A stretch of 64,000 nucleotides of DNA, from contig VRMN01000001.1 of NCBI GenBank assembly GCA_008690995.1, forward strand, positions 1,550,001 to 1,614,000, read 5' to 3'. Positions within the stretch are counted from its first letter, which is position 1. The number at the start of each line of letters is the position of its first letter. Under the pieces are notes generated by a model. The model was given only the letters and a program-made list of their open reading frames with translations. It was not told the DNA's origin and did not search any database. The DNA comes from Porphyridium purpureum (lineage: Eukaryota). Below, piece after piece: positions 23,671 through 64,000 of this stretch. Both the position numbers and the translations under genes were made by a program.

Positions 23671-23709
23671 ACTGTACACCACTGTACTCTACTGTACTCT
23701 ACTGTACTC
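23671..23709. repeat. (TACTGTACTC)n microsatellite, left half
   Basis: Read directly; continues at 36106-36160 beyond the inserted element. Confidence 0.95.
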
Positions 23710-24057
23710 CAAGATTGGGTCATAGGAATGAACGTGGGGGACGAGGTCCAACACTGATAAGGGGAGACAGCAAACCGAAATCCACTGCTGAGAAGACAAG
23801 ACCAAAAGGGTATCCACGAGAAACCTCCTTTAATCCGCGCCCTGATCTCCTCTGACTAAAAGCTAACAAAACACGTCTACGGCGAAGCGAAAGGGTGCTG
23901 GTTATATACCCGTGCGGCGCCATGGACGGCCGCCGTCGCCGCCCATATTGGTGCAGTGTGGGCACAGATTGAGGCTGCCGGCTGCTCACTCATCTGCAGC
24001 AGTACGACGGAACTGAACGCCCGCTCGATACTGGAGTACAGCTTGACCCCATTCACG
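23710..24057 (-). repeat. 3' LTR of the Copia-type element
   Basis: Appears identical by eye to 35758-36105; preceded on the minus strand by the PPT TTGAGAGGGCG. Confidence 0.92.
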
Positions 24058-24232
24058 CGCCCTCTCAAGCTTAATCCATATCGAGCGCAGGCTAAAAGAG
24101 ATTCATATCAAAAGCCCCCAACAAGGGGGTGTATAGCTAGGACTAGCCATACCATCATCATATCCATAACGGGTTGGTTTCACCATACCCGAACATTCAT
24201 AAGAGGGCGAATTGGTGCTCTGCCCTCACAAC

Positions 24233-27200
24233 CTAACACGACTCCGTGGCCGAAGGGGAAAGAAGGGATGACGAGAGGCCCCACGCGCGCGCATGGCCGC
24301 GGAATACATCGGCGCTCACCGGCTTCGTGAGCGGGTCAGCCATATTGCCCCGTGTGGGCACGTGGTCAAAGGTCACGAGTGCTTCACGGTAAAGCTCGTG
24401 AAGCCAAGCCAGACAAATTTTCTGGGTCTTGCTCGCATGGAGCAGTCCTGGACTGAATCCCTTCATCACCGCGCCAAGCGCGGTCTCATTATCGCAGCGG
24501 ATGGTGGCGCGCGGCCATCCCCGGCCCACATCCTCCAGGAAAAGCGCGATGGGAAACAGCGCGTTCTGCACTGCGCCATGGAGCGCCACCAGCTCTGCTT
24601 CGGCTGTCGAGGTCGCAACGCGCCTCTGACGTCTACTGGACCACTCGACAAGGTGACGGGTATCACCGGACACCAAGAATAAAGCAGTACCACTGGTTGA
24701 GCGACCGGGATCCAAATCGGAATCCACATAAGAATGGATCATTATCTGAGCATTCTCCGCTTGCGGCACCGGATAGCGCAAGCGCACATCTGCGTGCTTG
24801 TACAAGTACGCGAGGACCTCGCTGAGTGCGCGTTCTGCATCAGCCGACCAGCGATCTGTGTGACGCGCAATCATTGCCACTGCGTGTGCGACATCGGGGC
24901 GTGTGGTCCTGGCGAGCCACATGAGCTTGCCCAGGCATGAGCGCACCTCAGACGAGCAAGAATTTGCTTCTTCGCTCGTCTTGACTCGGGATGAAAGTGG
25001 TGTTGCCCTTGCGCGCCCACCTTTGTGGGCCGCAGTGATGTACCTGGCAAATTCGCAGCTATCAAAAATCCACGCGCCCTCCTCGCGGTACACATTCACG
25101 CCGAGGTAGCGGATTGGTTTTGCGCGCGTGCTTTCCGAGATGAGCTGCGCACTCTTAGTGATGTTGAACATTCTTACTAGCTCACGCATTGCCTCGCTCA
25201 CCGAGTGTGTAGTGCCAAGGATGGCACCATCGTCCACGTAAAGGACGAGCAAAGTAAGCGCGCCATTTCGTCTGCGCCAGTAAATGTTCTTGTCCGAAGC
25301 CGACTCTTTCCAGTGTGCGGCACATAACTTTTCGCGAGCATAAGCCGAATAATCGAATCCCGCTCTGGGCAATCCGTAAAGTGCCATCGGTATTGGCACG
25401 ACGGGGTTTGGAATCGAAGAAATTTTCCGCATATCAGCTCGCGGCAACACAGAATCCAAGAACGGCATCAAGGATTTGAAGTACGCAAAGGTCGGACTTC
25501 CGAGTAATGGTGCGTGTACATAGGCAGCATCGATGTCAAAGAACATCGCATCTGCGGCCTCACCATGAGTATGAAGCGCAACCGACACCGCAGCACGAAT
25601 GCTCGAAAGGCCCGGAGGCCGGTCAAACTGCGGCACTTCGGGCGGGGCGCGCCGGCCTGTTGCATCAGTGATGTGGCACCCTTGTGCCACAACGCGGCAC
25701 TTCAGCACGCGATGCTCGGGAGGCATCTCACTGTTCTTAATAGCCATGATTGGCTTCATGTTCACAAAGCGTGCTTGCTTTGCGCGCGCAGCCTCGTGCT
25801 TGCTGACCACCTTATGAAACGGCAGAGCGCCGCTTCCTATAAGTGTTTGCATCTCCTTCTGAAACGCAATGCGGCCTGGCTTTGTGTGCGCGTGATCGGC
25901 AAATGGCACTATCTCGGCTACACCAAGTTCTACAACTTCACCGCTGCAGCTTGCGGTGCGCCCATGTTGAGCGCCAAGCCCTTCCTCCGTTGTCTCCTGC
26001 TGCGCCAGCTGCGCCACGCCTAACACCATCTGCATAGCGCGCGTGTTCCCGGTCTTGATGCCGCGCCGATGCTCTTTGAGACCCATGGCGCGCTCGCCGA
26101 GTAGGCCCATGGCTGCCGCATGAGATCGCAAACCCTTGCTTCCAATGCCGCGCAGTGACTCACCTCCGCTTTCACCAATCAAGGACCAATTAGGCCCGTG
26201 CTTTTCGTATCCTGCGCTGAGCGCGTTGTTCATATCTGCGCTCCAGACGCGGCGTTCCTTCTTCCTCTGCGGCGGCGAAACAAGAACAACCTCATTGTCT
26301 TCTTGCTGGGCTTCAGCACTTTTATCACCGGGCAGACTTGACTGAGTATGCCCCGATGATCGATTGCCCTCGGATTCGTGCATGCTATCCCGCTCCGGCA
26401 TTACCCGAGCCATTACACCCTCTTCAGATGGGCGCTCTTTCTTGGGAAATTCGTTTGCTGATAAAGACCACTCTCCTACCCACCTCGCCGTTGTGGACCG
26501 GAGGTCGGCGTAGGGTGCGACAAGAAGGTTAAGGGGTGTTCGCGTTGTTGTTGGGGTTGGCATGCGTATGCCGATGACGAGCGCCAATGTGCCTGGCGGA
26601 TCGTACTTTGTACGCTCGGGCGCCAAGACGTACACGCCGCGGCCGAACGGCGGAAGCTCACGGTTCCAAGCGAACCCGTAGCGAGCCTCATACGGCGTCT
26701 TGCCGTCAGCGCCCTCCCACTTGACGTTTCGGGCAGCTGCCCAGTACTGAGCCGCAAATGCGAACCACGGCGAATCGAGTCCAGCGGCGGCGAGTAATGC
26801 GCGAACGCCCGCGTTCAAGTCACGATGCATTCTTTCGTGGATGGCATGCGTATTGGGACGGTGTGGGAGCCCGACCTCGTGGGCTACCAGGTTACCTTTC
26901 AGGGCTGTCTCGAAAGCGCCTTGAAACTCTCCTCCATCATCGGTCTTGACAAGACGCGGCCAGCCGCGTCCGCGCTGTATCTCAATCAGCGCCATCAACG
27001 TGCTCTCAGATGTTTTGTTCGCAAGCGGCGCGACTACCAACCAAGCGGTTGCCGCATCACGGTGGGTCATAAGCCAACGTGTTCCACATATGCCCGTCTC
27101 GGTTGGATCAACTAAGTCGACCGATACAACATCGTTAAATCCCTCGAATTGGGAATTTTCCTTCTTACGCGGCGCGCGAAGTACTTTCAACTTCGCCGCC

Positions 27201-28798
27201 TGACAGGCATCACAACTTGCTTTGGCGGGCATGTGCAGCACTCCGTGCTCATCTTCTGGCACCTCTTCGTTAGCGCGTGGTGCGTGCGCCTTATGCCCGC
27301 TTGCGACGGCACACTCAAATGGTTTCTCCGGCTCATCTGCCGGTGCTTCAATTGCGGCAGCTGGCCCAGGAATGCTTTTCCCAGCAACTTGAATTTTCAA
27401 TTCATGTGCATGTAGCCAGTCCAAGCCGAGAATTAACTCATGATGCCCTTGATGCACCCACGCATTTGTGCTCTCATCAGTCGCGCCGGGCGCGACGAGC
27501 AGGAATGAGGCTTTGCCATGAATTGGCTCACTGCGCCCATCGGCCAGTCGAATGCGTGGCCCGTTCGCTCCGCACTTCGTGTACGGCACTCGCAAGCGGC
27601 GACACAGAGCTTGCGAAATGAAGGTTGCGGTGGCGCCAGTATCAACAATGGCCTGAGCCTTGTGCCCGTTGACGAATACTGGCAGTCGAATTAGATCCGA
27701 AGCGCCGCTGACGGCGCTGGTTCCAATCTCGTACTCGGCCACACCCAGCTCTTGCGTGCAATCTGCGGCCCAGTGGCCGCGTCTTCCGCAATTGCGACAA
27801 GTATCAGCACCGAGATGATTGCCTATTAGCGGCCTACGGTTTCCCTTTGATTGTGCCTTCGGCACGTTCTTGCCTTTGTTGTTTCGTCGGCCATACCTCC
27901 GACGCGGCCCTTCAGCCGTCCCAAGATCCATCGGCGCGACGCCATCGTTGGAGAAGGCGGACGCGTGGACGCTCTGCCGATACACGGCATCAATTGCCAG
28001 TGCCGCTCGGAGTGCCTCATGGTAGTCGGTGGGCTGCTTCAACAGCACTTGCACTTGGATTTTCGCCTGCAAACCGCGCACGAAGCGATCGAGACGTTCC
28101 GAATCGCTGACGGACGGAAGGCGAAGTAGGCAATTACCGAAATCGTTTGCGTACTCATGCACGCTTCGATTGCGCTGCACGCAGGCAGCGAGTCGGTCAC
28201 GAGCGATCTGACTTGAAGCAATGGGTTCAAATTCCCTCTTAAAGACGCCAATGAAGCGGTCGAACCTGATCGGTTTCGGTTCCAGCACGGACCACCATAG
28301 CCTCGCGGCTCCGTGAAAGAAAGATGCGGCTACACGCACACATTTCAGCTCCGCGTCGTCATCCCATGTACGACCGGCAAGCTGGTATTCCTCTCTCAAC
28401 TGTGAGAGGATGCGATCGTTCGCGGCGTCGCACCACGACGCGACCACAAGCGCGTCGCGTTCTCCGAGGAAAGCGGGCATGGGAGCGTGCTTGACTTGAG
28501 ACGTCGCGTCAACGCGCGAGTATGCGTCATTGCGCACGCGGTGCAATTCAGCGGCGAGCGCTGCGCGCTCTTCCTGCACCTGTCCAATGAGTTCCTCGCG
28601 CATGCGCGAAAACTCTTGAGACATGGCCTGTCGCATGAGCTCAATATCGCTCTGCGCGGCGGCCATCGTCGGCTGATGATGCTGCTGTGCAGCTGCCTGC
28701 GCAGCCAGCTCGGCCTGCATGGCCTGCTGCTGCTGGCGAGCTAGCGCCGCGTTGCGCTCTTGCTCCAGCCGGGTGGGGGTCCTATGACCTGACTCCAT
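24233..28798 (-). CDS. Intact Gag-PR-IN-(Myb-like)-RT-RNaseH polyprotein
   Basis: CCHC knuckle CRNCGRRGHWAADC; protease IVDTGA; integrase H-x3-H-x6-C-x2-C, VSVDL, TDDGGEF, HER. RT motifs KCRVVAQG, DIDAAY, LYGL, LYVDD; RNase H motifs YVDSD, STAEAE, CDN, ADPLTK. Confidence 0.93.
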   Translation of the reverse strand: MESGHRTPTRLEQERNAALARQQQQAMQAELAAQAAAQQHHQPTMAAAQSDIELMRQAMSQEFSRMREELIGQVQEERAALAAELHRVRNDAYSRVDATSQVKHAPMPAFLGERDALVVASWCDAANDRILSQLREEYQLAGRTWDDDAELKCVRVAASFFHGAARLWWSVLEPKPIRFDRFIGVFKREFEPIASSQIARDRLAACVQRNRSVHEYANDFGNCLLRLPSVSDSERLDRFVRGLQAKIQVQVLLKQPTDYHEALRAALAIDAVYRQSVHASAFSNDGVAPMDLGTAEGPRRRYGRRNNKGKNVPKAQSKGNRRPLIGNHLGADTCRNCGRRGHWAADCTQELGVAEYEIGTSAVSGASDLIRLPVFVNGHKAQAIVDTGATATFISQALCRRLRVPYTKCGANGPRIRLADGRSEPIHGKASFLLVAPGATDESTNAWVHQGHHELILGLDWLHAHELKIQVAGKSIPGPAAAIEAPADEPEKPFECAVASGHKAHAPRANEEVPEDEHGVLHMPAKASCDACQAAKLKVLRAPRKKENSQFEGFNDVVSVDLVDPTETGICGTRWLMTHRDAATAWLVVAPLANKTSESTLMALIEIQRGRGWPRLVKTDDGGEFQGAFETALKGNLVAHEVGLPHRPNTHAIHERMHRDLNAGVRALLAAAGLDSPWFAFAAQYWAAARNVKWEGADGKTPYEARYGFAWNRELPPFGRGVYVLAPERTKYDPPGTLALVIGIRMPTPTTTRTPLNLLVAPYADLRSTTARWVGEWSLSANEFPKKERPSEEGVMARVMPERDSMHESEGNRSSGHTQSSLPGDKSAEAQQEDNEVVLVSPPQRKKERRVWSADMNNALSAGYEKHGPNWSLIGESGGESLRGIGSKGLRSHAAAMGLLGERAMGLKEHRRGIKTGNTRAMQMVLGVAQLAQQETTEEGLGAQHGRTASCSGEVVELGVAEIVPFADHAHTKPGRIAFQKEMQTLIGSGALPFHKVVSKHEAARAKQARFVNMKPIMAIKNSEMPPEHRVLKCRVVAQGCHITDATGRRAPPEVPQFDRPPGLSSIRAAVSVALHTHGEAADAMFFDIDAAYVHAPLLGSPTFAYFKSLMPFLDSVLPRADMRKISSIPNPVVPIPMALYGLPRAGFDYSAYAREKLCAAHWKESASDKNIYWRRRNGALTLLVLYVDDGAILGTTHSVSEAMRELVRMFNITKSAQLISESTRAKPIRYLGVNVYREEGAWIFDSCEFARYITAAHKGGRARATPLSSRVKTSEEANSCSSEVRSCLGKLMWLARTTRPDVAHAVAMIARHTDRWSADAERALSEVLAYLYKHADVRLRYPVPQAENAQIMIHSYVDSDLDPGRSTSGTALFLVSGDTRHLVEWSSRRQRRVATSTAEAELVALHGAVQNALFPIALFLEDVGRGWPRATIRCDNETALGAVMKGFSPGLLHASKTQKICLAWLHELYREALVTFDHVPTRGNMADPLTKPVSADVFRGHARAWGLSSSLLSPSATESC

Positions 28799-28805
28799 AT
28801 GGGAG

Positions 28806-29083
28806 TGCTGTGTACTACACCCGCAGCCACTACAACCCCTCTCTCACCTACAGGCACCCGCCCGGATCGAACCCCGACACCAACGGCACACCAACCTCTC
28901 CTCGCACTTCGGTACCTCCTTTACTTTTCGTTTAGCTCGGGCCGCACGGCGGCGTGGATTATATACTGCCGCAAAGCCCTGGATCTAACTCAGTGGTGGG
29001 TTTGGATGGGGTTTTGGAGGGTGGACTGTACTCTGGAGTACAGGTGCTACATGTGTACAGTGCATGGGGTGTACAGCATAGCA
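28806..29083 (-). repeat. 3' LTR of the nested Gypsy
   Basis: Apparently identical to 35207-35484; TGCT...AGCA termini; minus-strand TATATAA at 28959-28965. Confidence 0.93.
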
Positions 29084-29672
29084 CATCTCCCCCACCGCCT
29101 CAACCGCTTGTGCGCGCTCGGGGACCGGGAAGAGAGGAAAGGGAGGCTGGCTAGCCCGGAGGAAAACCACGCGGGAAACCGGGCAAAGGGGTCGCGGAAA
29201 ACGACCGCCGGCCAGCCCCAAACAAGCAAAAAATATTGTGAACGACGGAAAACCCATGCGACCCGGGTGTACGCGGCGGCGTCTTTGTACCTCTTTTCCG
29301 TGAGTTTTCGGTTTTCTGGTGCCGACTCCAGACGAGCACATTCCGGTGATCCAAGGTTCCGAGATAGAGGTGCAGGCTCAAGCAACACTCAAGAGGAGTT
29401 GATTGAAGCCTTTTCCCGCGAGGGAGGGCGCTTGCGGAAACCTCGGCGATATGCAACATTTGCCGACCCACCATGAACAGAAATTCCTGATTTGCGGCCA
29501 AACGACGCGGCGAAAGTGCGCGAAATGCAATATTGTAACCTAGATGAGGCCCACGAAGCCAGTCATCACCAAAGCAGAGCTTCTCTCGCCCTGGAACCTC
29601 CAGACACTCGTTGCTCATCCGTTGACACCGCCTGCCTCTCAACACCATATCCTCACTGTACCCACCCTGTGA

Positions 29673-29828
29673 GCCGATACGCCGATACGCCGATACGCCG
29701 ATACGCCGATACGGATAAACGGATAAACGGATAAACGGATAAACGGATAAACGGATAAACGGATAAACGGATAAACGGATAAACGGATAAACGGATAAAC
29801 GGATAAACGGATAAACGGATAAACGGAT
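29673..29828. repeat. Compound 8-bp arrays (GCCGATAC)x5 then (GGATAAAC)x14 in the Gypsy 3' UTR
   Basis: Counted directly from the sequence. Confidence 0.95.
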
Positions 29829-29925
29829 GAGCCTCCGCCTTTCTCACAGTCGAAGGTCGGGAAGGATAGAGAGGCAGCGCGAAAGGAGGCCGAGGCTCTT
29901 GCCACACGCCGGCGGCCCGGACCGA

Positions 29926-32900
29926 CTATAGAAAGCTCTCGCCCGACGTGGATCGCAATGCAGTGCCGCGGTGCAAGCTGCCGCGGTTGAACGCCCACAC
30001 AAGGGCCGGCGGCAGGGCAGAGGAACTTTCCCACGTCCAGTCCTTCTTCCTTGCCCCCTTCCAAGCCACAAGATACTCGGCCCCGTCGCTCCGTTCGCGC
30101 CTGGCTTTCAGACCTGACACCTCAACGATGTCACCGTCGGCGTTTCCCAGGCTGGTCGAGCGCAATGTATCGTTGCTCAGTAGCGCTCGGTCCACTCTCT
30201 TCAGCCGTCGGCGATGCACGAAGAATTCTTTGCCGTCATGCGTCTTGAGCCATGCGCGATGCTCGTCAGCACGCTCAACTTCAAAAGGGCCTACCCAAGG
30301 GTCCGCCAGCTTTCGGCCCTCCCTGCCCAGCGGCGGCTTCCAAACGAACACACAGTCCCCCGGTTCAACGTCAACAATTCGACATGACGCGTTAAGCTCT
30401 CGACGTCGGGCGTCCCGGGTGGCATCATTTTCAACTACTGCGTTGTGCAAGGCCTCGAGCCTGTTGCGCAACAGAATCACAAAGGCGTCCTCCTTTCTTG
30501 CGCTGTCTTGTGGCGCTACTTCCCCTTCGGCGGCCGGGTTGAAGGGTCCCAGCCATGAATTGGCCTCTCGTCCGAACATGAGCTCGTAAGGCGTCCTCTG
30601 CGTCGTGCTGTGTCTAGTCTGGTTGAACGCGGCCACACAGGCAGGCAACCACAAATCCCAATCGTCCTCCGTGACCCACGAAGAAAGCATGTCGCAGAGT
30701 GTCCTGTTAAAGCGTTCGACCGCCCCGTTGGCTTGTGGGTTGTACGCTGTCGTAAACAGCTTTCTAACGCGCAGCATCTTGCATAACTGGCGTAGAACAT
30801 CGGCTCGGAAACAGGGCCCGTTGTCGCTCAGAAGAGCTTCCGGTAGGCCAAAGATTGCAGCCCAACGATCCAAAAAAGCCTCGGCAATGGTCTCTGCCCG
30901 CTCGTCTCGCACACATATTGCTATGGTGAACCGAGTGAAAAGGTCGCTCACTACCAGGATTTTTGAATATCCAGTGCTTGTTCTCGGCGTTACCGTTAAA
31001 ACGTCCGCAGCAACGACCTCGAACCGCCGGGTAACGACCCGCTTTCCCATGCGGTGGCTTGTGACAGGGGTCGGTGAGCCCTTTCGCGCGGCGCAAGTTC
31101 TACATTGCTTTACGAACTCCAAGACGTCTTGCAGCCAGCCAGGCCACCAAAACTCCGCGTCGGATATACGTGCCGCCGTCTTGGACACTCCGAAATGCCC
31201 GCTGAAAGGTGCTGAGTGGTAGACATCTAAAATACTGCCCACTAGTCCATCAGGGACTACCTTGCGCGGTTTGTCTTTCAGCGCGGCCCACGCAAGTCCA
31301 CTTTCGTCCAGATAGTACTCCGGATAGGAATATACTCGTGGGGACTTTTGCAATGCCGCGAGCTCTTTCGATAGCAGCTCGTCCTCCCTGTACGCTGCCT
31401 TGAGCCTCTCCGGAGATGGGAGCTCGTAGCCCACGGCTTGACCAATCGCGTGCGGATCATCTTCATCTGTCGGTACTGCAGAATCCTCTGCGACGGGATC
31501 TCGTCGCGCACGCGTGCGCACTGCGTTCAGTTCGAGACGTGACAGTGCGTCCGGCACTCGATTCAAGCGGCCTTTAACATGCTCGATGGTAAACGAAAAG
31601 TCCTGAATTGTCAGTGCCCAGCGCGCCAGCCTTCCTCTTGGCTCTTTCATGGACAGGAGCCAACGGAGAGGTTCATGGTCAGTGCGAATGCGTACGGTTG
31701 TGCCGAAAACATAGTGTCGTACCTTTTTGAGACACCAAACTACTGCAAGGCACTCCAGCTCGGTGACCGTATAATTTTGCTCCGCCGACGTCAAAGTCCG
31801 CGACAAAAAAGAGATTGGCGCAAGCTTCCCGTCCGGCATCTCCTGATACAACGCACCGCCCAGTCCTATCTGAGAGGCGTCGGTGTCGAGAACCTTTGGC
31901 GCGTTCGGATCCGCCAACACCAGCATCACTTTGTCCGACGTGAGCACCTCTTTGAATCCGTCGAAAGCGCAGCGCGCGTCTTCCCCAAAGCGTGCCTGCC
32001 AGCCGGCGCACTCTAGATCTGTATTGCGGTGTGCCTTCTTTGCATTGACGTCCAAGCCATCCAGCGCTCTCCGGAGCGGCGCCGCGCGATCCGAGAACCT
32101 GGGTATGAAGTCCCTGAACCAATTCACAAGCCCTAAGAAACGCAGCAGCTCTGTTGGGCCCTTAGGGTAAGGCCACTTGAGAATGGCTGCCGTACTTTTT
32201 CCCCCCCGGCCGAATGCGGCCTTCTTCCACTTCATGTCCCAGGAAACTGAGCCTTGCCGTAGCGAATTTGCACTTTTGCAGGGAAAATGTCATGTTCTCT
32301 TCCTGGAACTTGCTTAGCACTACGTCTAGGACCTCCAAATGTTTTTCTATCGTTTTGGTCCCTGTCAACATATCGTCTAGGTACATCAGGATGTGTTTCC
32401 ATCGAAGCGACCCAAGTATCGTGTTCACAAGTCTCTGGAAGGTAGCGGGCGAGTTTCGGAGGCCCTGTGCAAGGACTGTGTAGCGGAACAGTCCCTCCGC
32501 CGTTATCATACCGGTGAAGTCCCGCGAGGACTCCGCGAGGGGAACTTGGAAGAAACCGTCAGCCAGGTCCATCACAGAGAAGACTCCACACGGGAGGAAG
32601 CGTCCCATCCAATCTAAGCATTCGCGCACGTCAGGGATTGGGTATCTATCTGGAACGGTGTGGCTGTTCAATTGGCGGAAATCCGTAGTCAGCCGCCACT
32701 TACCGTTTGGCTTTCGAATGATAACGTTCGTGCTGGCATATGGGCCCGAGCAAGGCTCGAGGATGCCCAAAGATAATAAACGCTGGACTAGCGTGCTCTC
32801 GGCCTCTCTTTCAACTTCAGACAATCTACGCAGGCGGGCCGGGGTAAGACGTGCGCCTGGATCAATAGCAATGGAGTGCTCAGTAGACCGTGTGCGACCT

Positions 32901-33724
32901 GGACGGTCCCGGAACACCCTCCAGTGCTTGAGCAACACCGCCCGAAGACCACTTTGGTGAAGCACGTCTACGTGGCTGAGGTCTACATCCATAATGCGAG
33001 CACGCGTCTCCTCTTCGTCCTCTTGCATTACGTTTGGACTCCCGAGCTTACTTGCGTCTCTTTGCTCTACCCCAACGCAATCAATTAAGTTCAGTGATTT
33101 TGCAGGCGCTCCCTCTAAGAGGCGAATCGTGGCGCCGTCTTTCATTTCGAGCTCGCCCTTGCCAAAGGAAAGCGCGTTAGCATTAGCAACCCAGAAATCC
33201 CATCCCAGGATAAGATCTTCGATAAGATCTTCGGCAACTAATGCGCGCACCTGGTACATTGACTGGCCAATTTGTAGCTGAAGCTCTGATGCTCCGACAA
33301 TACCGAGGGAGCTTCCGCCTGCAGTTCGACACTCCTGCGCCACGTCCTGTATTACGGCTCCTAGAGAACTGACCCACTTTGCTCGCGCATATACACCGGC
33401 AATCCCTACAGCACCCGTGTCGGCAAGAGCATCTACGGCAGATCCCGAGACCTTGACAGGCGTGCGACCCGATCGCATGACACGTGCTTTGGCCAACACG
33501 CGCACGTACGGGACTCTGCCAGAAGCAGATTCCACCAGATGGTTTAAGACTTCCAAGGTTGGACTCGCTCGCAGGATTCGCTTCGGCCCTAGAGCTAGAT
33601 CATCAATCACGGAACTTGTTCGAATTTCGGTGTTCTCTTCACCTACGCTGGGCTTGCGATATCCCAACGCTTCCATGGCCTCATCCACGGCCCTCCCATT
33701 CCACGCTACCACGCGTCCGCGTAG
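29926..33724 (-). CDS. pol: Gypsy pol (PR, RT, RNase H, IN, chromodomain) with one frameshift near 32200
   Basis: ALADTGA, YLDD, TDASQIGLG, ELECLAVV, HSAPFSGH..C..C, SDNG, NGAVERFN, GPF and the chromodomain EYLVAWKG...TWE. The frame changes in a G7A5 run at 32196-32207. Confidence 0.9.
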
Positions 33725-34936
33725 TCACTCGCTCGCAGGCGCCGCCGAGGTAGCTCTGCGCACCGGTGCTGGCGCCAGGCAGTCTCCGGCATAGTGTCCT
33801 GTCCCTTGGCAGCGGCGACACACCACTCGATCCGAGTTGGCCATTAAACGGTTCCCCCCGATTCCGGGCACGCCCAAAACGGCTGCCACCCGGTCCGCCA
33901 GGAACTCCACTTCGATCAACTTTTGATCCTCTGTCTCCTTCGCCGGGTCAGGAGGTACACCCCCAAGATTTGGTTCGGAATCATGAAGTACATTGACCGC
34001 AGCCCCCGGTGGACGGAAAACCGGTCTCCCTTGGGCAAAGCTTCGTCCCTTCTCCAGTGTCGACCCGTAGTTTTTCTCCAACGGTAAAATCATTCCGAAG
34101 AATGTTTCTGTGGCAGCGTGGAGACGACCCATCTGTTGAATATCTCGAGGAAGTCCTCGAACAAAGTCGCTCTTCATCGACGCCTCGGATTTCCCAAGAG
34201 CAGCGCCGAGCTCGTACACGGCGCGGTGATAGTTTGCCACTGACTCGCCCTTCGTCCATTTCCTCTCGCAGTACTCTTGTTCCACAGATTCCAAAAGCTG
34301 AGGAGACCAGAAAACCGAACGCGCCCACGCCCAACGCTGCTGAGCCGAGTACTCCGTCGCAAGCTCGCCGTTCTTCTCGGCAGTGCGATAAACCTGCTCA
34401 GCCGAATCCGCAAAAGCTAGAACCACAAACTTTGCCGTGAGGTCGGCTGGAATGTGGCGACATGCTTCCACCCAGGTCAAATACGTGGTTTCGAACCTGA
34501 GATCACGCGCGTGACGGATGCGACAGTCTTTCATCTCGAGAATGACCGACCTCTTCATTTCTTGCTCGAGTTTGATGAGCCGGAGCTCCTCAGTGGACAT
34601 TGTCAACAGGCTCGAACCATCAGAGACCGCCAGTGCAGTCCCGATTCTGGACGCGCGGCTGGGCTCCCCCGGTGGCTCGGCACCATGTTCGGCGGATCTT
34701 GGCCGAGAACCGCGATCCTGCGCGTCCGCAATCGTCGGTTCGTCCAGCTGCGGTCCGAGACGCTGAAAGATCATCTCCATTCTCTGACGTATCTGGTCAA
34801 TGCTTTCGCGCAGCTGCTCCTGGCCGGATGCGATCAGCTCTACACGTCCCTGGAGTGCCGCCACATCAGCCGTGACGCTCGCTACAGTTGGACGCCCGGC
34901 CATTTCCCCCAAGATATCCGACAGGCGTCCGGACAT
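33725..34936 (-). CDS. gag: Gypsy gag
   Basis: GESVANY, FVRGLP and the CCHC knuckle CRRCQGTGHYAGDC. Confidence 0.88.
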   Translation of the reverse strand: MSGRLSDILGEMAGRPTVASVTADVAALQGRVELIASGQEQLRESIDQIRQRMEMIFQRLGPQLDEPTIADAQDRGSRPRSAEHGAEPPGEPSRASRIGTALAVSDGSSLLTMSTEELRLIKLEQEMKRSVILEMKDCRIRHARDLRFETTYLTWVEACRHIPADLTAKFVVLAFADSAEQVYRTAEKNGELATEYSAQQRWAWARSVFWSPQLLESVEQEYCERKWTKGESVANYHRAVYELGAALGKSEASMKSDFVRGLPRDIQQMGRLHAATETFFGMILPLEKNYGSTLEKGRSFAQGRPVFRPPGAAVNVLHDSEPNLGGVPPDPAKETEDQKLIEVEFLADRVAAVLGVPGIGGNRLMANSDRVVCRRCQGTGHYAGDCLAPAPVRRATSAAPASE

Positions 34937-35206
34937 AAATCAGATAATCAGTCAGTCCCTAGAAATCAAACGCAAAAGTGTGCAATGCGTGTGCTGAAGC
35001 CACCCGGCTTCCCACACAAGTTCAAAAAACCAAACAGAACTATCTTTTCAAAGCCACCCGACTTCAAACGAGACACCAGAGCCACCCGACCTGGCACCTC
35101 TCCCCCACGTCGCCCTGGTTCCGGGCCACCCGACCACCAACCAGACCGGCCCGCGCGCTCCCACAAGAAATTACTCAAGAATGGGGCAACGCTAATTCTA
35201 GAATTA

Positions 35207-35484
35207 TGCTGTGTACTACACCCGCAGCCACTACAACCCCTCTCTCACCTACAGGCACCCGCCCGGATCGAACCCCGACACCAACGGCACACCAACCTCT
35301 CCTCGCACTTCGGTACCTCCTTTACTTTTCGTTTAGCTCGGGCCGCACGGCGGCGTGGATTATATACTGCCGCAAAGCCCTGGATCTAACTCAGTGGTGG
35401 GTTTGGATGGGGTTTTGGAGGGTGGACTGTACTCTGGAGTACAGGTGCTACATGTGTACAGTGCATGGGGTGTACAGCATAGCA
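35207..35484 (-). repeat. 5' LTR of the nested Gypsy
   Basis: Direct repeat of 28806-29083. Confidence 0.93.
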
Positions 35485-35743
35485 GGAGTAACTTCTGCTC
35501 CGTGCCTACTACACGGGCCTACGTGCGATCGTTCCTTTGCAACGAGCCTCTCGTTCTAGTTGCACGCTACAAGCCTCTTGCTCGTACGTCTGTTTGTGCG
35601 CGCCGTGCCTTCTTGCACGCGTCACTCAACGATCACCGGTGCGGCGAGCTCCTCGCTCGAGCCGTCTTTGCGCAACTGTCGCGTTCGCGCTTCACGCCGT
35701 GCCCTTGCACGCGTTACTTTGTTGCAGCTGTGTTGTTAGCGAC

Positions 35744-35757
35744 CTAGGCTCATAACC
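35744..35757 (-). other. Primer-binding site GGTTATGAGCCTAG (tRNA-iMet anticodon-arm / half-tRNA type)
   Basis: Directly abuts the 5' LTR and matches the GGTTAT(G/A)GCC PBS type of Ty5 and Drosophila copia. Confidence 0.8.
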
Positions 35758-36105
35758 CAAGATTGGGTCATAGGAATGAACGTGGGGGACGAGGTCCAAC
35801 ACTGATAAGGGGAGACAGCAAACCGAAATCCACTGCTGAGAAGACAAGACCAAAAGGGTATCCACGAGAAACCTCCTTTAATCCGCGCCCTGATCTCCTC
35901 TGACTAAAAGCTAACAAAACACGTCTACGGCGAAGCGAAAGGGTGCTGGTTATATACCCGTGCGGCGCCATGGACGGCCGCCGTCGCCGCCCATATTGGT
36001 GCAGTGTGGGCACAGATTGAGGCTGCCGGCTGCTCACTCATCTGCAGCAGTACGACGGAACTGAACGCCCGCTCGATACTGGAGTACAGCTTGACCCCAT
36101 TCACG
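35758..36105 (-). repeat. 5' LTR of the Copia-type element
   Basis: Direct repeat of 23710-24057. Confidence 0.92.
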
Positions 36106-36160
36106 TACTCTACTGTACTCTACTGTACTCTACTGTACTCTACTGTACTCTACTGTACTC
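36106..36160. repeat. (TACTGTACTC)n microsatellite, right half (TACTC plus 5 units)
   Basis: Read directly. Confidence 0.95.
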
Positions 36161-39626: not shown

Positions 39627-41993
39627 GTTGCCGACGGTGCTGTCGTGCGCGTTCGTCCCAGACGCACCGCCACGCGGCGAGATTCCAAGCGCGGTTGTCC
39701 AGTGTCCCTATTCTGTTCCGAGCGTGCCATGCGCCGCACTCGCCGTCTTGCTGGTCACAAACGTGTCATACCTCGCGCCGCGCGCCCACACACACACCTT
39801 CTTTGTCTTGTGCGTCATGTATTCCACACCACCAACACCCGCGCGCGCACCGGGTTGCTTAACCGGTCACACGCTCGAACCGTTTGCCAATGTCCAGTTA
39901 GGGTTTCCGCCACTGTACCCAATCGATTTTACTACGAGAAGGTCACTGTACCCCCACGCTAGGGTTAATTCAGAGTCTTGCACGGTGGCAAACCGGATAA
40001 CGGCGTATCGGCTAAATGTTATCCGATAAGCACAGTGGATGTTGCGTGCCGTGGTTGAAGAAGAGTGGTGGCAAGGGCAGGAGTGAAGAAACTGTGTGCC
40101 GAGGCACCTACAGAGTCAGCCGTGCACGAAGCTCGGCGCAAGAGTATGCGCTGCAGTTGCCGTCGCGCGCAGAGGTCCGAGTGCTATTTGGATATAAAGT
40201 GGTACGTCTGGCCATGGCGGCGACTACGCACTCCGTTGATTGGTGCTTGGGCGCTCTGCTGATCGGGAACTGACGGAGCCGCGCACCATCGGCAGCGCTG
40301 CTGGACCAGATTTCCGTGTGGAGGTGGCGGTGGTAGGGTGTGTGCACCACGCGAATGCCTCGTGTCTGGAGATGAGCATGCTATTGTGGTGAAGCGCTTA
40401 CGGCTGCAAGTTGAGAAGCGCGCGCGGGAATGGTCGGTGCTTGCGATCGTGCGGTGTGGTGGCAGCGCTGACAGCTTGGTCGTGCTCGCAGGAGGGAAAG
40501 TAAACTCGGAAAGTTTGCTTGGCTATATGGTGGTTCAGTCGAGTACGCACCTGCATGAGCGAGCGGTGGTCTTGTCGAATGTTCTGTAGCATGTACACGA
40601 CTCATCAAGAGAATAGGGCAACGCTGGACATCCAGTTTGTGCTGACTACACGTGCTCACCCTCACGTCGACGTTGTTCTCGCTTACACAGGGTGAATCAT
40701 GCGCGTGGATACACAAGGCATGAAACTCAGATTCGTCGTAGGACCAAAAGCTTTTGGTCCTGGCAGCCCGCCGTGGACTACGAAACCAGCACAGACAATG
40801 GAGCGAGGAAATGGAGAGCCAAGCAGTCCACCGGTCCTCGCGACACCAGATTCTTGCGAATGGCTGCCAATGCCGAGCTTCTCGGCGCGAGCTCGGCAGA
40901 TACGAGCGAGACTGGACGACGACAGGATGCCCTTCGATGCTCAAGACCTCAAGAAATAGGTCCTCAATCAGCCTGCTGGCTCTTCTGTCAACTCGATGAA
41001 CTCGAGCGCTTTGCCAAACTTTGGCAACTTTGAACGTGCTGTCTCTTCCTCGCCGCGACTGAGTGTCTAGCGTCTTATACGCACATGCACAGCCGATTCG
41101 ATCACCGCTCCAACAAACCGAAAAGAGCGCATCACCACGCCAAAGTGCATGCAGACGCTTAGTGGCCTCCCGCCCATAAGGACTTTTGTTTTAAATGGCC
41201 TGGTTACGCTCAGCGTGCTCGATGCCAAGTCTAAGGCTGGCAAACGTCAAGCAGTGGCGCCTTGTGATGCGGCCACACTTGTGAGATTTGAGGCGCGCAC
41301 ATAGCTATTCCAAGACAAGGACGCAGCGACGTGGAATAGCTTTAAGGAGGAGCTGAAGACGCTCATCATAAAAATTATAGAATCCGTGGCACCCGGCTTT
41401 GCGGCACTCGCAACGGGTCCAGGCAACCTCCTGCGTATGCCACTTCATCCAGCCGGTCCGGGAACCGCGGCGCGAGTCCAACTTCCGTGCGATTGCCGCC
41501 AACCGCAGCACGGGCGCCGAAGCCCACGCCGGCATCCGACCGCGTGGCGCATGGCATCAGCGCCCATCATTTCTACCGGCGCCGAGCTTCTGGCCGCCGC
41601 GCGCTCGGAATCGACGCACGGATGCACGTCTGAGCGCGCATGGACGTGCGCGGATGAGTTGAGATCGAGAGGTACAGTGTGAAGTACACTCAGCGTCTTA
41701 TCAAACGAGGCTGTTTTACCAGGCGCGCCACGTTTCGGCGCAGCATCGCGGCCGATCTCCACTCCACGTGGATGAAGGTGAGGAAGAGAGAGAGGGGCAG
41801 AGCAGGAGAAGGGAGAGCGTGCGCGTGGGTGGAGGGGTTTGGGCGGGTCTCGGGACGCTCGCGGGGTGGCGCCGTGCATAGTTCAAGCAGCGAGCAGCCA
41901 CTTCGGGAGCAGGGGCTGTGCTGCAGCGACGTGGCGAGGCTCAACGGCGCTCGCGCAGAGCTTGGCGTGGCCGGTCTCTGAGCGCACGAGCCT

Positions 41994-54975: not shown

Positions 54976-56263
54976 TGTTGTAGGAAACGCCTTCCCACTC
55001 TGTGTGCACCGCGTGTCACAGTCCCTCGACTGTACACACACGGTGCTCACCTCCTGTTCTTCCTTGCTGCCAAAGGACCGTTGTGCAGCTTCCCAACACC
55101 TTGTAGGCTCTTTCTTCTTCGTCAACGGTGCCCTCTTTATTTCGGCTCACTCTAATCTAACACCTGTCGAACGTACTTTATATACCTTTCTGTCCAAAAC
55201 GGTCCGCTCGAGAAAACGCCCCCTCAGGCGCAAAAAACTCTGCGTCCGTTCCCGTCACGACCCCCTGGACGGTCGCACAACCGAATTATTGTGGGCCACG
55301 ACACTACTGTGCGCCCTCTTTCACGTCAGCAAGCTCTGGCGCGCCCTGTTCCTCATCAGCAGGTTCATTCGCGTGCGTTCGGCTCGACCCATTTGCACGA
55401 AGTTCACACAGTCGCTCTTCTTTCTGTGCGAGCCGAACGCTGGTTGATTGCTTAATTTGCTGCTCGATCACCAAGTTAATTGTACCGTCCTTCAGAAGTC
55501 GAAGTAGCGCCTTGTTTGGTTCCGCTTTTGTAAGTCCGTCGGCTGGATTTCCTTCCGACCTCACCCACTTAATACTCACAACTTCCTCATTCTTGAAAGC
55601 CTCTCTTAAGACAGAAATATCCAGCGCAAGCCTTTTCTCCGCCGGAAGTCTGTCTGTTGATATTGCATCGAATATGGACCTGCTGTCGGTCACCAGGCCC
55701 AGGGGTAAGTCCATCCCGATACTCCGCAGCGTTGTTTGAATAAAGATCCCAGCGTCGAAACCCTCAGCTAAGGCAAGGATTTCCGCACCCAGGACGGAGC
55801 GGGTAATTCTTCTCGCCTTCTTGGATCCCCACAGTAAGGGTACAGCATGACCGTTGTCGTTGACCACGCACACAATGTATCCCAGCTGACTCGAAAGATC
55901 TTGGTTATTTGCGAATGCCGCATCCGCAAACACTTCGATTCGCAGTGCCCGATCCGTTGTATCCTCGCCGCGAAGACCTCGTATTAGAACGGATCCGTCC
56001 CAATGTCTCATCGCTTTTTTTACCCTCTTGAGTAGCTCGTCTACTCTCGTCTGATCGTAACTCACGTCTGTTACTTGCATCAATTGCGCGCAGAGGTAGT
56101 TTAGATCCGCTCTGGTGCCATTCACTAACCAGCTCAACTTACCACGTAGTGACCTTAAGGATGAGAAATCGTGAGCTTCAAGAACGTCGATTGGCGTTTG
56201 TTTGATGGTCAGACCGTCTTCGACCTCGCGCACTTGCATTCCAGCGAATGAGATGGCGTTGTC
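54976..56263 (-). mobile_element. GalEa-like Copia element, 3' part (RT end, RNase H, putative 3' LTR 54976-55257), interrupted by a Gypsy at 56264
   Basis: ORF 55304-56263 has FADAAFAN, SQLGYIV, RSVLGAEILAL, TDSRS, EKRLALD and NPADGLTK. The candidate TG..CA LTR has TATATAAA and a PPT-like AGGGGG; its partner LTR is not in the window. Confidence 0.8.
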
Positions 56264-57314: not shown

Positions 57315-57348
57315 AGAAGGTTCTGGAACCTCTAGAAGCTTCTAGAAA
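57315..57348. promoter_or_regulatory. Two perfect heat-shock elements in LTR U3 (copies at 56439-56472 and 62487-62520)
   Basis: aGAAggTTCtgGAAc and aGAAgcTTCtaGAAa, about 75-110 bp upstream of the minus-strand TATAAAAA. Confidence 0.7.
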
Positions 57349-57551
57349 CGGTTAAACGGTCTACCGGTTTAACGGCTTACCGGTTTCGGATTAACCGAAC
57401 CGTTCTAGGTGACTGGGGTCGAACGGATAACATCTCCCCCCCTCTTGGCTCGACGTCTCGGCGAGACTTCAAACTAAGTTGCATTCTTGGCTCGAGGAAC
57501 CCGCGCTCCGGGAGAAAACCTCTGCCTAGCAAACTTCTCACAATTCCCAAG

Positions 57552-60500: not shown

Positions 60501-60950
60501 AAAGTTAGCGGCCCCTGAGTACCCATCGCTCAGTTCAAACTTGACATTGGAAACTTCTCCGGCTGTTTCCAATACAGACCCATCCGCTAGGGTCACATGA
60601 TCTCTCTTCCACGACGCCTTCTGCTTCAGGCCGTCGGATTTCAGCACAAAGTCCACGCTCATGAAGTTGTCCGTCGCGCCACTGTCAATCAAAAACGTGG
60701 CCTCTCCATCGGACTTGTGCACTTTTCCTCGAACTCGAAGAAGCATGGCAGCTCCCATTCCTCCAAGTTCCTTGATCACGGGCTGATTTGCGCTCGAGTT
60801 TCGCCCACAAGGTGTCGGACAGCCAGACCTTGGCTTACCAAGGCCACCACAGCGGTCTTCATTGCCGCCCCTAGAGGTCTCGTAACGTCTGCGAGCCTCC
60901 TTTCCCTCTGACTGTCCGAGGAACCTCTCTACTCGAGCTCCTCGTTTTTT
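57552..60950 (-). CDS. pol: Gypsy pol of element X (PR-RT-RH-IN), intact, reached by a -1 frameshift
   Basis: LIDSGAT, YLDD, HDIPTAGH..C..C, SMDF, SDRD and DGQTERVN; no chromodomain. Confidence 0.93.
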   Translation of the reverse strand, partial: KKRGARVERFLGQSEGKEARRRYETSRGGNEDRCGGLGKPRSGCPTPCGRNSSANQPVIKELGGMGAAMLLRVRGKVHKSDGEATFLIDSGATDNFMSVDFVLKSDGLKQKASWKRDHVTLADGSVLETAGEVSNVKFELSDGYSGAANFAICRIAGQDAILGMEWLKRENPGIDWQSGMLAYGEKKAWSMTQMLVPRKELRRLLKSQEVEECYLGVLKGREEPCSVERKEADSVRKMLNDFENLFEEPRGLPESRTVEHVIRLKDEKPVRVGRVYRLSPAELKVLRETLDDLLDKGFVQPSQSPFGAPVLFVKKKDGSMRMCVDYRALTDATVKDRYPLPNMDELLDRLGAAHCFSKLDLASGYHQLRVRREDVPKTAFQTRYGQFEFRVMPFGLCNAPATFQRAMNELFADLLDKTVIVYLDDILVFTKDRQSHGEVLKEVLSRLQKAGYRLKRKKCSFFVSEVEYLGNIVGNGCVKMDPRKVEALKDWPVPKTVTELRSFLGMTNWFRRFVKGYSTVVAPLTSLLQNAKSKKQLIELGDEGKSAFKKIVGMLTEAPVLALPDPEKPFEVYTDRSEVAVGGWLAQEGRPVAFTSRKLLDRETRHSSYEGELMAVIHCLREFRPYLYGAKFVLHTDHEALKHLMTQKELNGRQARWLDFLAEFDITIDYVKGKSNVVADALSRKPELHALEYQVRCEEFGAGFQAFVGSYSSDPDFGTLMGDLPTHQGFRTEAGLLYLRNRVCVPRKFRERVMQLHHDIPTAGHRGADTTYASLITRFYWPKMKRDVSRFVKTCHACQVTKSENRSFGKLKPLSIPEGPWVDISMDFVTELPRSEGSCDAIMTVVDRYSKMALFIPTRKDLTAKRCADLFVKHVVSRFGYPKSIVSDRDPLFTSTFWQQLSKRVGMKLAMSTANHPQTDGQTERVNRVIREMLKLMTTNTGWVRDLPLYEFAYNSAPSSATGFAPFKVVYGRDPWFPPSEGWRPARDGQTKDMAEHWFRLCKVHEEVRDNLIEAQGRMQKFFDRRKDAREFQVGDQVLVTAPQMRPNKSDLAAPKFLGPVPVIEKVSSHAYRVVLPEGVACHDVFPIQHLKPYYGREDYMAGENDEEVPDEMPASDSEPDLLKIIEESDSE

Positions 60951-61734
60951 GACTCCAGCGAGTCTCCCTCCAGCTGCTGGATAGTCTTCCTTGCCTCGGG
61001 ACACGTTCTGGCGATGTGTCCCGGCCTTCCACAATTCCAGCATTTGAGCTCGGTACGAACACGCCTCTGACCCTGCACATGTCCCAGCTCCATCGGGACA
61101 GGTCCTTCCTGCGCTGCACGACCGAAAAATGGCGCCCTCACACTTGAATCACGCACGCCGCGGGTCGCATGAATGGCGTCGTCCACGACCACCGCCACCT
61201 GCGCAGCCTCCGCGAACGTACTCACTCCTCGCTTGTACACTTCCAAGCGCACCTCGGGCTTCAGACCCCTCACAAAGCGGTCCATCATTTCTGCGTCCGA
61301 CAAGTCCGGAATCACAAGTGCCGCGTCCTGAAAGCCGCCACATACGCATGGGCCGGGCCTTTCTGCGAAAGACGCGTCAACTTGTCCCTTGCACGCCTGA
61401 TCGAATCCTGCGGCGTGAACCGAGCACTCACGAGGGCAGCAAAATCATTCCACGTCGTGGGGATCTCCTGCGGGTAGCGCTCGCAGTTCAGAACCCACCA
61501 ATGAAGCGCCTCTCCCTCGAAGTAGTCTGATGCCAAGTCCACAGCACGCCTCTCCGCAAGCAGACGTTTCTCCAAATCGTCCGGGTGGATGCTCTCCAAC
61601 AACCGGCCCAAGATCTTCTTTCTCGCCTGGAACAACCACGTCTTCACAACCAGAAGGTCACGCTTCCCGTCGAACCTCATCAGACGGGCCTCCTTCGGGC
61701 CACGTGGTCCCAGCGTCTCCGAATCAATCTCCAT
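60929..61734 (-). CDS. gag: Gypsy gag of element X, with a 1-bp frameshift near 61325
   Basis: Two ORF pieces (61312-61734 and 60929-61315) together form a Retrotrans_gag domain, PMELG and the CCHC knuckle CWNCGRPGHIARTC. Confidence 0.88.
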
Positions 61735-64000
61735 GCTTTCTGGACTAAAGCACGCTCACCGATCACAATAACGACACGAACAGCAAGCCTCCGATGCTCA
61801 CTTTCTCCAACAGCTGCGCGCACCACGAACGGGCTCGGTCGCCCTCACGAACACAAACCGACACACGAAGCTGTCCTCTCACGCACACACACACGCACAG
61901 CAATCTTCTCACGCACACACAACAAAGCACACAGCAATCCTCCTCTGTTGCGCTGGATGGGGAGCGGCCCGGGCCTTTGCACTGGGGCGGGGATTATAGA
62001 TGCGATCTTATATGGAGGTGTTCGGCGCCTACCTTCGCAAAGGTGGTCGTGCGACACTAGGATGAATCCTAGTGAAGGCTGACCGTTACGGCTCTTGCCT
62101 ACTAATACGTGCTAAGGCAGAGAGCGAGTCCGCCGTCAAGGCCTAGGCCTATCGTACAGCCAAGACTGAGACCCGCTTCCACCCGTCGCACCCTCCGGAT
62201 CGACTTACTCGAACCCCCTTACCCGCAGACTCTCCCACCCAGGCAACCCCGGAGAAGCTCTAAGAGAACCTTAGAGCAACCCCAGGTAACCAGCGATGAT
62301 ACCAAATGTTACCAATGCTGTGCCTTTATTCTCTGCGTCTTCTTTCTTACCTCTTCTCTCTCCGAGCAAGACCTGACCGGCTAGTCCGGGCAGGCGCGTC
62401 GCCTTTTTATACCCTTACTTCCGCCAGGGACAGCAAGGCGCCAAGAGAAATGACAATGCAAATCATTGGCATTTCTGCGCGCGTCTAGAAGGTTCTGGAA
62501 CCTCTAGAAGCTTCTAGAAACGGTTAAACGGTCTACCGGTTTAACGGCTTACCGGTTTCGGATTAACCGAACCGTTCTAGGTGACTGGGGTCGAACGGAT
62601 AACACCTTCACTCGGTGGAAACCGAGGATCCCTTCCATATACCACTTTGAACGGCGCGAATCCAGTGGCACTGCTTGGTGCAGAGTTGTACGCAAACTCA
62701 TACAACGGCAAGTCTCGCACCCAGCCACTATTCGTCGCCATCAACTTGAGCATTTCCCGAATCACGCGGTTCACTCGCTCAGTTTGGCCATCTGTCTGCG
62801 GGTGGTTGGCGGTAGACATAGCCAACTTCATACCCACCCGCTTGCTCAGCTGCTGCCAAAACGTTGACGTAAACAGCGGATCTCGGTCCGATACAATTGA
62901 CTTGGGGTATCCGAAACGGCTCACGACGTGCTTCACGAACAAGTCAGCACAACGTTTTGCTGTCAAGTCCTTGCGCGTCGGGATAAACAGCGCCATCTTC
63001 GAATATCGATCCACCACAGTCATGATTGCATCACAGCTGCCTTCGCTCCGAGGCAGCTCCGTCACGAAGTCCATCGAGATGTCGACCCCAGGTCCTTCTG
63101 GGATCGACAAGGGCTTCAGCTTTCCAAACGACCGATTCTCTGACTTTGTCACTTGGCATGCGTGACAAGTCTTCACAAAACGGCTCACGTCTCGCTTCAT
63201 CTTTGGCCAGTAGAAGCGAGTCATCAAAGACGCATGAGTTGTGTCCGCTCCACGGTGCCCTGCTGTCGGGATATCGTGGTGGAGTTGCATGACACGCTCT
63301 CTGAACTTCCTCGGCACGCAAACGCGATTCCTCAAGTACAAGAGCCCAGCTTCGGTTCGAAAACCCTGGTGGGTCGGTAAATCTCCCATCAAAGTACCAA
63401 AGTCTGGGTCACTCGAGTACGAACCCACGAATGCCTGGAAACCCGTACCAAATTCATCACACCGAACTTGGTACTCTAGCGCGTGCAACTCCGGCTTCCT
63501 CGACAAAGCATCGGCTACCACGTTCGACTTTCCCTTCACATAGTCGATTGTGATATCAAACTCGGCTAAAAAGTCCAGCCACCGTGCTTGCCGGCCATTC
63601 AGCTCCTTCTGCGTCATCAAATGTTTCAACGCCTCATGATCTGTGTGAAGCACAAACTTTGCCCCGTACAGATAAGGTCGAAACTCTCGCAGACAGTGAA
63701 TGACGGCCATGGGCTCACCTTCATAGCTGCTGTACCTGGTCTCTCGGTCCAGCAGCTTCCTCGACGTAAACGCGACCGGTCTGCCTTCCTGTGCCAGCCA
63801 TCCCCCCACCGCGACTTCAGAGCGGTCCGTGTACACCTCAAATGGCTTTTCAGGGTCTGGCAAGGCCAACACCGGCGCTTCCGTCAACATCCCGACAATC
63901 TTCTTGAAGGCCGATTTGCCTTCATCTCCCAGTTCGATCAGCTGCTTCTTCGACTTTGCGTTCTGCAACAGCGAAGTCAGCGGCGCCACGACGGTAGAGT

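Follow-up and report, generated by a model that had tools for sequence, protein, structure and literature searches.

A radiated Porphyridium retrotransposon lineage whose predicted polyprotein joins a Gypsy-type Gag and protease to a Copia-type integrase, reverse transcriptase and RNase H

Introduction

Retrotransposons with long terminal repeats (LTRs) are classed by their reverse transcriptase (RT) and by the order of their pol domains, and Gag and protease (PR) are assumed to follow. Here we analyse an LTR retrotransposon of the red alga Porphyridium purpureum, located in a 64,000-nt stretch of contig VRMN01000001.1 (GenBank assembly GCA_008690995.1, positions 1,550,001 to 1,614,000; hereafter the window, whose numbering is used throughout), in which a Gypsy-type Gag and PR are fused in frame to a Copia-type integrase (IN), RT and RNase H (RH). 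With a probability of about 0.83, we read it as an intact gene belonging to an old lineage in Porphyridium, in whose ancestry a Gypsy Gag-PR likely took the place of a Copia one, probably on more than one occasion. The features of this chimeric element are all on the reverse strand, apart from its unstranded target-site duplications (TSDs).

Ty1/Copia elements (Pseudoviridae), among them the half-tRNA-Met-primed copia and Ty5, share with the chimeric element the position of IN before RT, an RT of the RVT_2 type, an RNase H, a single open reading frame (ORF), a 5-bp TSD and a primer-binding site (PBS) on the Met anticodon loop. They differ from it in their Gag (Retrotran_gag_2, not Retrotrans_gag/Ty3_capsid) and protease motif (LLS, not ILG), and the chimeric element is further set apart by CG...TG ends, a shortened HHCC finger and a Myb-like domain behind IN. 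With Ty3/Gypsy (Metaviridae), represented by the element Gypsy A of the window and by capsids of the PEG10/Arc type, which are of Gypsy origin, it has in common the capsid, the PM(D/E)LG motif, the CCHC knuckle and the ILG protease, whereas it follows Copia in its pol order, RT, RNase H, IN and PBS. The closest IN-RT-RH outside Porphyridium belongs to protist Copia elements (P0033, P0035, P0041, P0057, P0174), which are JGI and transcriptome records where looked up. These also have the short HHCC finger and, in most, a Cys-rich linker, but carry a DSG...LLS protease and a Gag dissimilar to the chimeric one.

Gmr1-like Gypsy elements (PMC2774666) combine, as here, a Gypsy-type front end with IN before RT. 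However, Gmr1 is a Gypsy with a Copia-like order, whereas the IN, RT and RNase H of the chimeric element group with Copia; an identity with Gmr1-like Gypsy was rejected, since the RT falls on the Copia side. GalEa-like Copia elements of the same algal genus, CoPorcru1/2, have been described (PMC3587641); the GalEa elements of that paper have a PBS for the tRNA 3' end and TG...CA ends, a distinction drawn from their description. LLS versus ILG serves as a Copia/non-Copia protease marker with 'very few exceptions' (PMC2774666), among which there might be such a case; there, Gmr1 and CoDi-A are the known shortcuts. Recombination within Copia is known, and chimeric-looking elements were dropped from a large plant survey as probable mis-predictions (PMC6317226), while hybrids have been reported among non-autonomous elements (PMC13570524). 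A full-text search, beyond whose reach lay most subscription papers and Repbase, found no Copia with a Gypsy Gag-PR, and such a hybrid is apparently undescribed before.

An intact hybrid that has radiated would mean that particle assembly and processing are separable from priming, reverse transcription and integration. It also offers a natural system in which to follow the adaptation of a foreign protease and nucleocapsid to another Pol and RNA. On a small scale, it parallels the chimeric origin that has been proposed for caulimoviruses (PMC2774666).

A Gypsy-type Gag and protease

The sequence-only reading of this DNA had proposed an intact ORF with a Gypsy-like Gag and PR ahead of a Copia pol, and both its intactness and its quoted motifs hold. 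The frame (24233..28798) runs free of stops from the ATG at 28798 to the stop at 24233-24235, encoding 1521 aa, and a named P. purpureum protein is 98% identical to its product. The motifs lie at residues 110 (FLGERD), 165 (ARLWW), 231 (SDSERLDRFVRGL), 288 (APMDLG), 384 (IVDTGA), 455 (LILGLDWL), 1033 (KCRVVAQG), 1186 (LYVDD), 1397 (STAEAE) and 1487 (ADPLTK). The front end comprises a predicted Gypsy-type capsid (27914..28489; aa 104-295), a CCHC zinc knuckle matched by zf-CCHC (27758..27799; aa 334-347) and a Gypsy-type aspartic protease (27383..27697) with DTG at residue 386 and the ILG motif at 456. Among Pfam profiles, Retrotrans_gag scores 48.6 bits on the ORF (cut-off 24.1) and gag-asp_proteas 41.3 (cut-off 28.2); Ty3_capsid, at 26.4, stays below its cut-off of 29.1, and neither Retrotran_gag_2 nor Pol_BBD nor RVT_1 matches at E 0.1.

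Since Retrotrans_gag also matches some (plant) Copia elements, the capsid was compared directly with Gypsy and Copia Gags. The likeness to the Gypsy Gag of the window, which had been seen by eye, is strong: the alignment with Gypsy A is collinear over its full length, with 31% identity and a local score of 205 (z 34), against a maximum of 55 over 300 shuffles. This Gag, frameshifted and used for comparison only (60932..61755, reverse strand), is the closest obtained outside the family of the chimeric element. None of 34 canonical Copia Gags scores above 46; three Copia Gags from P. purpureum score 28-45, and that of the pol relative P0035 scores 36. A hidden Markov model (HMM) was built from eight family Gags and applied to 179 proteins and to 975 frames of the window. 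Beyond the family itself it detected nothing but Gypsy A, whose two frames gave 89.6 and 59.5 bits, the next score being 8.4. Non-family proteins among the 179, many of them lacking a Gag, reached at most 6.2 bits, and the Gag of Gypsy B, the second Gypsy of the window, 0.3 bits. Conversely, the Copia Gag profile gives -1.1 bits on the chimeric Gag versus 96-112 on canonical P. purpureum Copia.

The protease behaves in the same way. The family protease HMM gives the two window Gypsy proteases 43.5 and 33.6 bits and the best Copia 14.6, the Copia PR profile reaches 4.8 bits on the chimeric protease, and the motif is ILG and not the LLS of Copia. In a tree of 25 rows and 90 columns, 7 family and 2 Gypsy rows are split from 16 Copia rows at 100/99, as the Gypsy-like character noted beforehand would predict, and a tree constrained to unite the proteases of the family and of its pol sisters is rejected (p-AU 0.020). 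Atlas places the region with clusters carrying Asp_protease_2, RVP_2 and Retrotrans_gag (top score 0.95). Judged by their sequences, the Gag and protease of the ORF are Gypsy-type.

A divergent Copia Gag and protease merely resembling Gypsy profiles, through convergence or as an artefact of labels, is a highly improbable explanation. All capsids have one fold in common, and with the AlphaFold model (pLDDT 74; a two-lobed capsid plus a retropepsin) Foldseek ranks dArc1 as the top capsid, while in the comparison by Z score PEG10 leads the capsids and a Copia capsid comes fourth; Ty3_capsid is moreover below cut-off in this copy. The full-length collinear alignment with Gypsy A, the background scores of Copia Gags and the protease tree nevertheless speak for Gypsy, as does Atlas, where 7 of the 10 best family-bearing matches agree with the family or clan of the top match and none of the families given is a Copia Gag or protease. 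Other searches added little: BFVD structure matches were generic retroviral or caulimoviral, phmmer against PDB returned weak integrase, Ddi1 and knuckle matches only, viral-contig scans gave no match, and word-index searches with Gag-PR and with the Gag alignment found family members alone (2 and 3 matches), which is weak evidence.

A Copia-type integrase, reverse transcriptase and RNase H

Behind the protease lies a variable PR-IN linker that contains the Gypsy/Copia junction (27248..27412), followed by a Copia-side integrase (26429..27247) with a short HHCC finger, the triad D561-D620-E655 and SH3-like C-terminal strands, a Copia-type RT with YVDD (25019..25927) and a Copia-type RNase H (24284..24766). 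The order Gag-PR-IN-RT-RH is that of Ty1/Copia, as had been claimed, and not the RT-RH-IN order of Gypsy. RVT_2 without RVT_1 is seen across the family, but weakly for this copy (18.1 bits, below the 31.6 cut-off); SH3_retrovirus gives weak matches in relatives' integrases, and the modelled IN core resembles retroviral integrases (Z 19.8, rmsd 3.1, 161 aligned), integrase cores taking up the fold matches of the IN model. When four members were made into a pol profile and compared with 1.84 billion representatives, P. purpureum families ranked first and unnamed relatives next. A metagenome scan returned 8 weak integrase-only loci at 27-30% identity, which were not used.

Separate trees, rooted on the two window Gypsies, agree with these motifs. 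Among 30 rows of IN, the family falls on the Copia side versus both Gypsy integrases at 100/98 and joins protist-like Copia at 87/92; with IN, RT and RH combined in 20 hand-chosen rows, the values are 100/100 for the Copia side and 96/98 for the grouping with protist Copia. The family and its protist sisters have the short HHCC finger in common, and none of the 8 canonical Copia or the 2 Gypsy integrases aligned with them possesses it. Many of the protist relatives also have the Cys-rich linker; across 190 proteins, 44 match the pattern of the finger and 31 that of the linker. The predicted IN, RT and RNase H are thus Copia-type. Taken together, neither Gag nor protease sides with Copia while IN and RT do, as the scans and trees suggested by the sequence-only reading were designed to reveal.

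Identity to Gypsy A ranges over the family from 24 to 40% in Gag versus 14-18% in RT. GAG and PROT are otherwise the most variable parts (PMC6317226), and a Gag nearer to Gypsy A than the RT is therefore reverses the normal rates.

Between IN and RT lies a Myb/SANT-like three-helix domain (26099..26254), which we treat as a lead only. In P0007 (E 8.7e-5) and P0027 (E 3.3e-5) it comes just below cut-off; in this copy the family HMM gives 51 bits, the model has three helices and Atlas scores 0.78. Against PDB, P0027 returned one weak Myb match, to TBF1 (E 0.33). Most core families have the domain (P0007, P0027, P0028, P0003, P0004), P0181 has it weakly, and other members carry a Cys/His-rich motif at the IN-RT gap, some having both. 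As a lead, the Myb-like domain may target integration.

Spread in Porphyridium and read support

The same full-length layout is found in P0002, P0003, P0004, P0005, P0007, P0176, this copy and its near-twin P0001, and over the stretch that they cover, the partial records P0056, P0063, P0046 and P0180 and the ENA record P0089 agree with it in their front end. At least seven P. purpureum families have this layout; P0002, P0003, P0004, P0005 and P0007 are 30-68% identical to this copy, and the divergence among families is of similar size in Gag, PR, IN, RT and RH. In RT-RH trees these proteins lie in a clade of 22 rows at 95 (142-row FastTree, 37 partial rows dropped) and of 14 rows at 96 (quick IQ-TREE of 37 hand-picked rows). 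A layout common to at least seven diverged families indicates a radiated lineage and not a one-off recombinant: the hybrid lineage is old and radiated in Porphyridium. In the P0176 family (P0175, P0178, P0046), two records have a Gag that ends after the knuckle, and Pol forms a record of its own. This suggests that two ORFs are used there, in contrast to the one ORF of the present copy.

Read sets point the same way. Of 24 runs listed, 17 contain at least half of the words, and 8 studies contain some part; runs X3, X6, X11 and X22 were examined closely, as short-read contigs and not long reads, and X19-X21, with small shares, were left aside. Contigs in X3, X6 and X11, from three studies, span the junction at 27248-27412 without differences; of the three, only X3 carries a flag as a possible source. 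In X3 and X6, records of 5,395 nt correspond to the element without the nested Gypsy B, minus one LTR and plus 30, and a contig of X11 runs from 28806 directly into the 5' leader (35489..35746), so uninterrupted copies exist. The depth in X11 (about 620 inside the element versus 160-210 on the flanks) suggests several copies and is not a count. In RNA run X22, one fifth of the run yielded 381 reads, mainly at the 3' end and with a junction depth of 1-4, their direction being probably that expected for sense RNA.

It is hard to credit, in this light, that the fusion was created by the assembly, or that it is a single dead recombinant that formed recently between a Copia and a window Gypsy. Nested and duplicated elements do abound in the window and this copy is itself interrupted; yet the junction is unchanged in three studies, two of them not flagged as possible source, families 30-68% identical share the layout with divergence alike across domains, and Gag is just 31% identical to Gypsy A. 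An assembly artefact was rejected on the spanning contigs and the layout of other families, and a recent exchange with either Gypsy of the window, A or B, on the low Gag identity and the age of the radiated lineage. The earlier idea of a viable recombinant stands for the lineage; it does not stand for this copy, with a nested Gypsy in its 5' leader, nor as a recent recombinant with a Gypsy of the window, while its junction is indeed present elsewhere. From the intact ORF, identical LTRs, uninterrupted copies and low RNA, the hybrid lineage is likely still spreading.

Origin of the hybrid

Could the family be a relic, that is, an early-branching Copia with an ancestral Gypsy-like Gag and ILG protease, LLS having evolved later in other Copia? 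ILG is the widespread state outside Copia (PMC2774666), the branching inside the group of family and protist elements lacks resolution in the IN+RT+RH tree, and a family basal to all Copia is not rejected on the IN+RT core (p 0.104). It is rejected once RNase H is added (p-AU 0.0395, marginal, under LG+G4). Moreover, the short HHCC finger and Cys-rich linker tie the family to particular elements with LLS proteases, Gag is up to 40% identical to Gypsy A against at most 18% for RT, and the Gag of Gypsy B is all but invisible to the family HMM. We consider a relic improbable. Where the protist pol relatives have a protease, it is of the DSG...LLS type, clear in most of 21 aligned and degenerate in some; because these sisters keep Copia-type proteases and the basal placement is rejected, the Gypsy front end was likely acquired.

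The two tests of basal placement, one marginal and one negative, are among several points that weigh against an acquired Gypsy front end. The Gags of the protist sisters score at most 16.7 bits with the Copia profile and are of unassignable type, their proteases alone being typed, and a protease tree with the two Gypsy rows alone on one side is not rejected (p 0.188). The capsid fold barely discriminates: PEG10 CA-CTD gives Z 13.9 (rmsd 1.6, 84 aligned), the Drosophila Copia capsid Z 11.9 (rmsd 12.1, 166 aligned) and a Ty1-type CTD Z 9.9, and with a Copia capsid scoring so near, structure cannot decide between Gypsy and Copia. The 37-row RT-RH tree is a quick version only, and this copy is interrupted in its 5' leader by Gypsy B. 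The Gypsy references are two, both from this window (A and B), and two word-index searches and two viral-contig scans yielded no further Gypsy that might represent a donor lineage.

An acquired front end would likely have arisen in two steps: a Gypsy inserting in the same orientation in the 5' end of a Copia, and then a deletion or an RT template switch that would join the Gypsy protease to the Copia integrase while the Copia LTR and PBS were kept. Gypsy B, nested 3 bp upstream of the chimeric ATG, indicates that the first step still occurs. Gag and protease likely move as a unit, since a protease has to cleave the Gag that belongs to it. The resulting element would function as an ordinary Copia: it would make one polyprotein cut by the Gypsy-type protease, package its RNA with the Gypsy-type capsid and knuckle, prime RT from a half initiator tRNA and integrate through the Copia-side integrase with a 5-bp duplication.

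Several observations suggest that front ends have been exchanged repeatedly. The P0007 protease is 39% identical to Gypsy A and 17-24% to its family relatives, a single origin of the family proteases is rejected (p 0.014), and the pairing of P0007 with P0176 in the RT-RH tree is rejected by Gag-PR data (p 0.017); these tests were framed after the trees had been seen and use 90-300 columns and two Gypsies. The Gypsy Gag-PR was likely captured more than once, as far as these alignments go. In addition, P0181, P0183 and P0184 of P. purpureum have a canonical Copia Gag-PR-IN ahead of the RT-RH of the hybrid lineage, and their IN groups with canonical Copia at 96/92, so that these three are likely chimeric as well, their break falling between IN and RT. 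It is tempting to speculate, though we would put this at somewhat under even odds, that the Copia/Gypsy boundary is permeable for autonomous elements: a single Porphyridium RT-RNase H lineage would have interchangeable front ends, either a Gypsy Gag-PR captured repeatedly from different donors or a canonical Copia Gag-PR-IN, its hybrids having radiated with CG...TG ends and a Myb-like domain possibly targeting integration.

Element structure

The chimeric element measures 12,396 bp with the nested Gypsy B, to which the sequence-only reading of this element makes no reference, and 5,713 bp without it, and has the LTRs, PBS, polypurine tract (PPT) and 5-bp TSD of Ty1/Copia. Window self-comparison places the 3' LTR at 23710..24057 and the 5' LTR at 35758..36105, both 348 bp and identical (348/348), as had been thought. 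They end in CG...TG, not the TG...CA of LTR retrotransposons generally, or in GT...GG in a register shifted by 1 bp. The PPT (24058..24068) abuts the 3' LTR, and directly after the 5' LTR lies the PBS GGTTATGAGCC (35747..35757), complementary to the Met anticodon loop, so that the Copia character once ascribed to both is borne out. We take this PBS to be of the half-tRNA priming type of copia and Ty5; the window holds no tRNA gene against which it could be matched. The TSD reads TACTC on the left (23705..23709), inside a short TACTCTACTG tandem repeat, and on the right (36106..36110), matching the left 5-bp copy. Half-tRNA-Met PBSs are mentioned in PMC6317226.

The insertion site is a 10-bp tandem repeat (23685-23709 and 36106-36160) with seven exact copies and none elsewhere in the window. 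The CG...TG termini and any target preference come from a single locus together with one loose end, which an X11 contig shows at 24057; the register of LTR and TSD rests on the PBS position and that loose end, so a reading shifted by 1 bp is possible. The sequence adjoining the loose end differs from the TACTCTACTG repeat, which, if it is genomic flank, counts against strict targeting.

Neighbouring elements

Gypsy B (28806..35484, 6.7 kb, reverse strand) has identical 278-bp LTRs, a 4-bp TSD (GGAG) and a chromodomain-like C-terminus. Its gag ends in TGA, with PR-RT following in frame, and the TGA-CTA context makes stop read-through possible; a change of frame near 32162-32289 separates RT from RNase H. 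Where its PBS would be expected there is a palindrome unlike a tRNA sequence, and the 3' untranslated part contains an array of 8-bp tandem repeats (29671-29830). Gypsy A (56262-64000) consists of tandem, partly duplicated copies with segments 96-99% identical and a frameshifted Gag, and its PBS is of the tRNA-Met 3'-end type.

At 55304-56332 lies a remnant of another Copia-like RT/RNase H with only a weak RVT_3 match, by eye presumably of GalEa/CoDi type. Among the protist-like Copia polyproteins, P0041 has an AAA_28 NTPase domain fused behind RNase H. In a host ORF of 1649 aa (41982-46931), parts resembling an amylase and a starch/glycogen synthase appear by eye to be joined with a carbohydrate-binding end.

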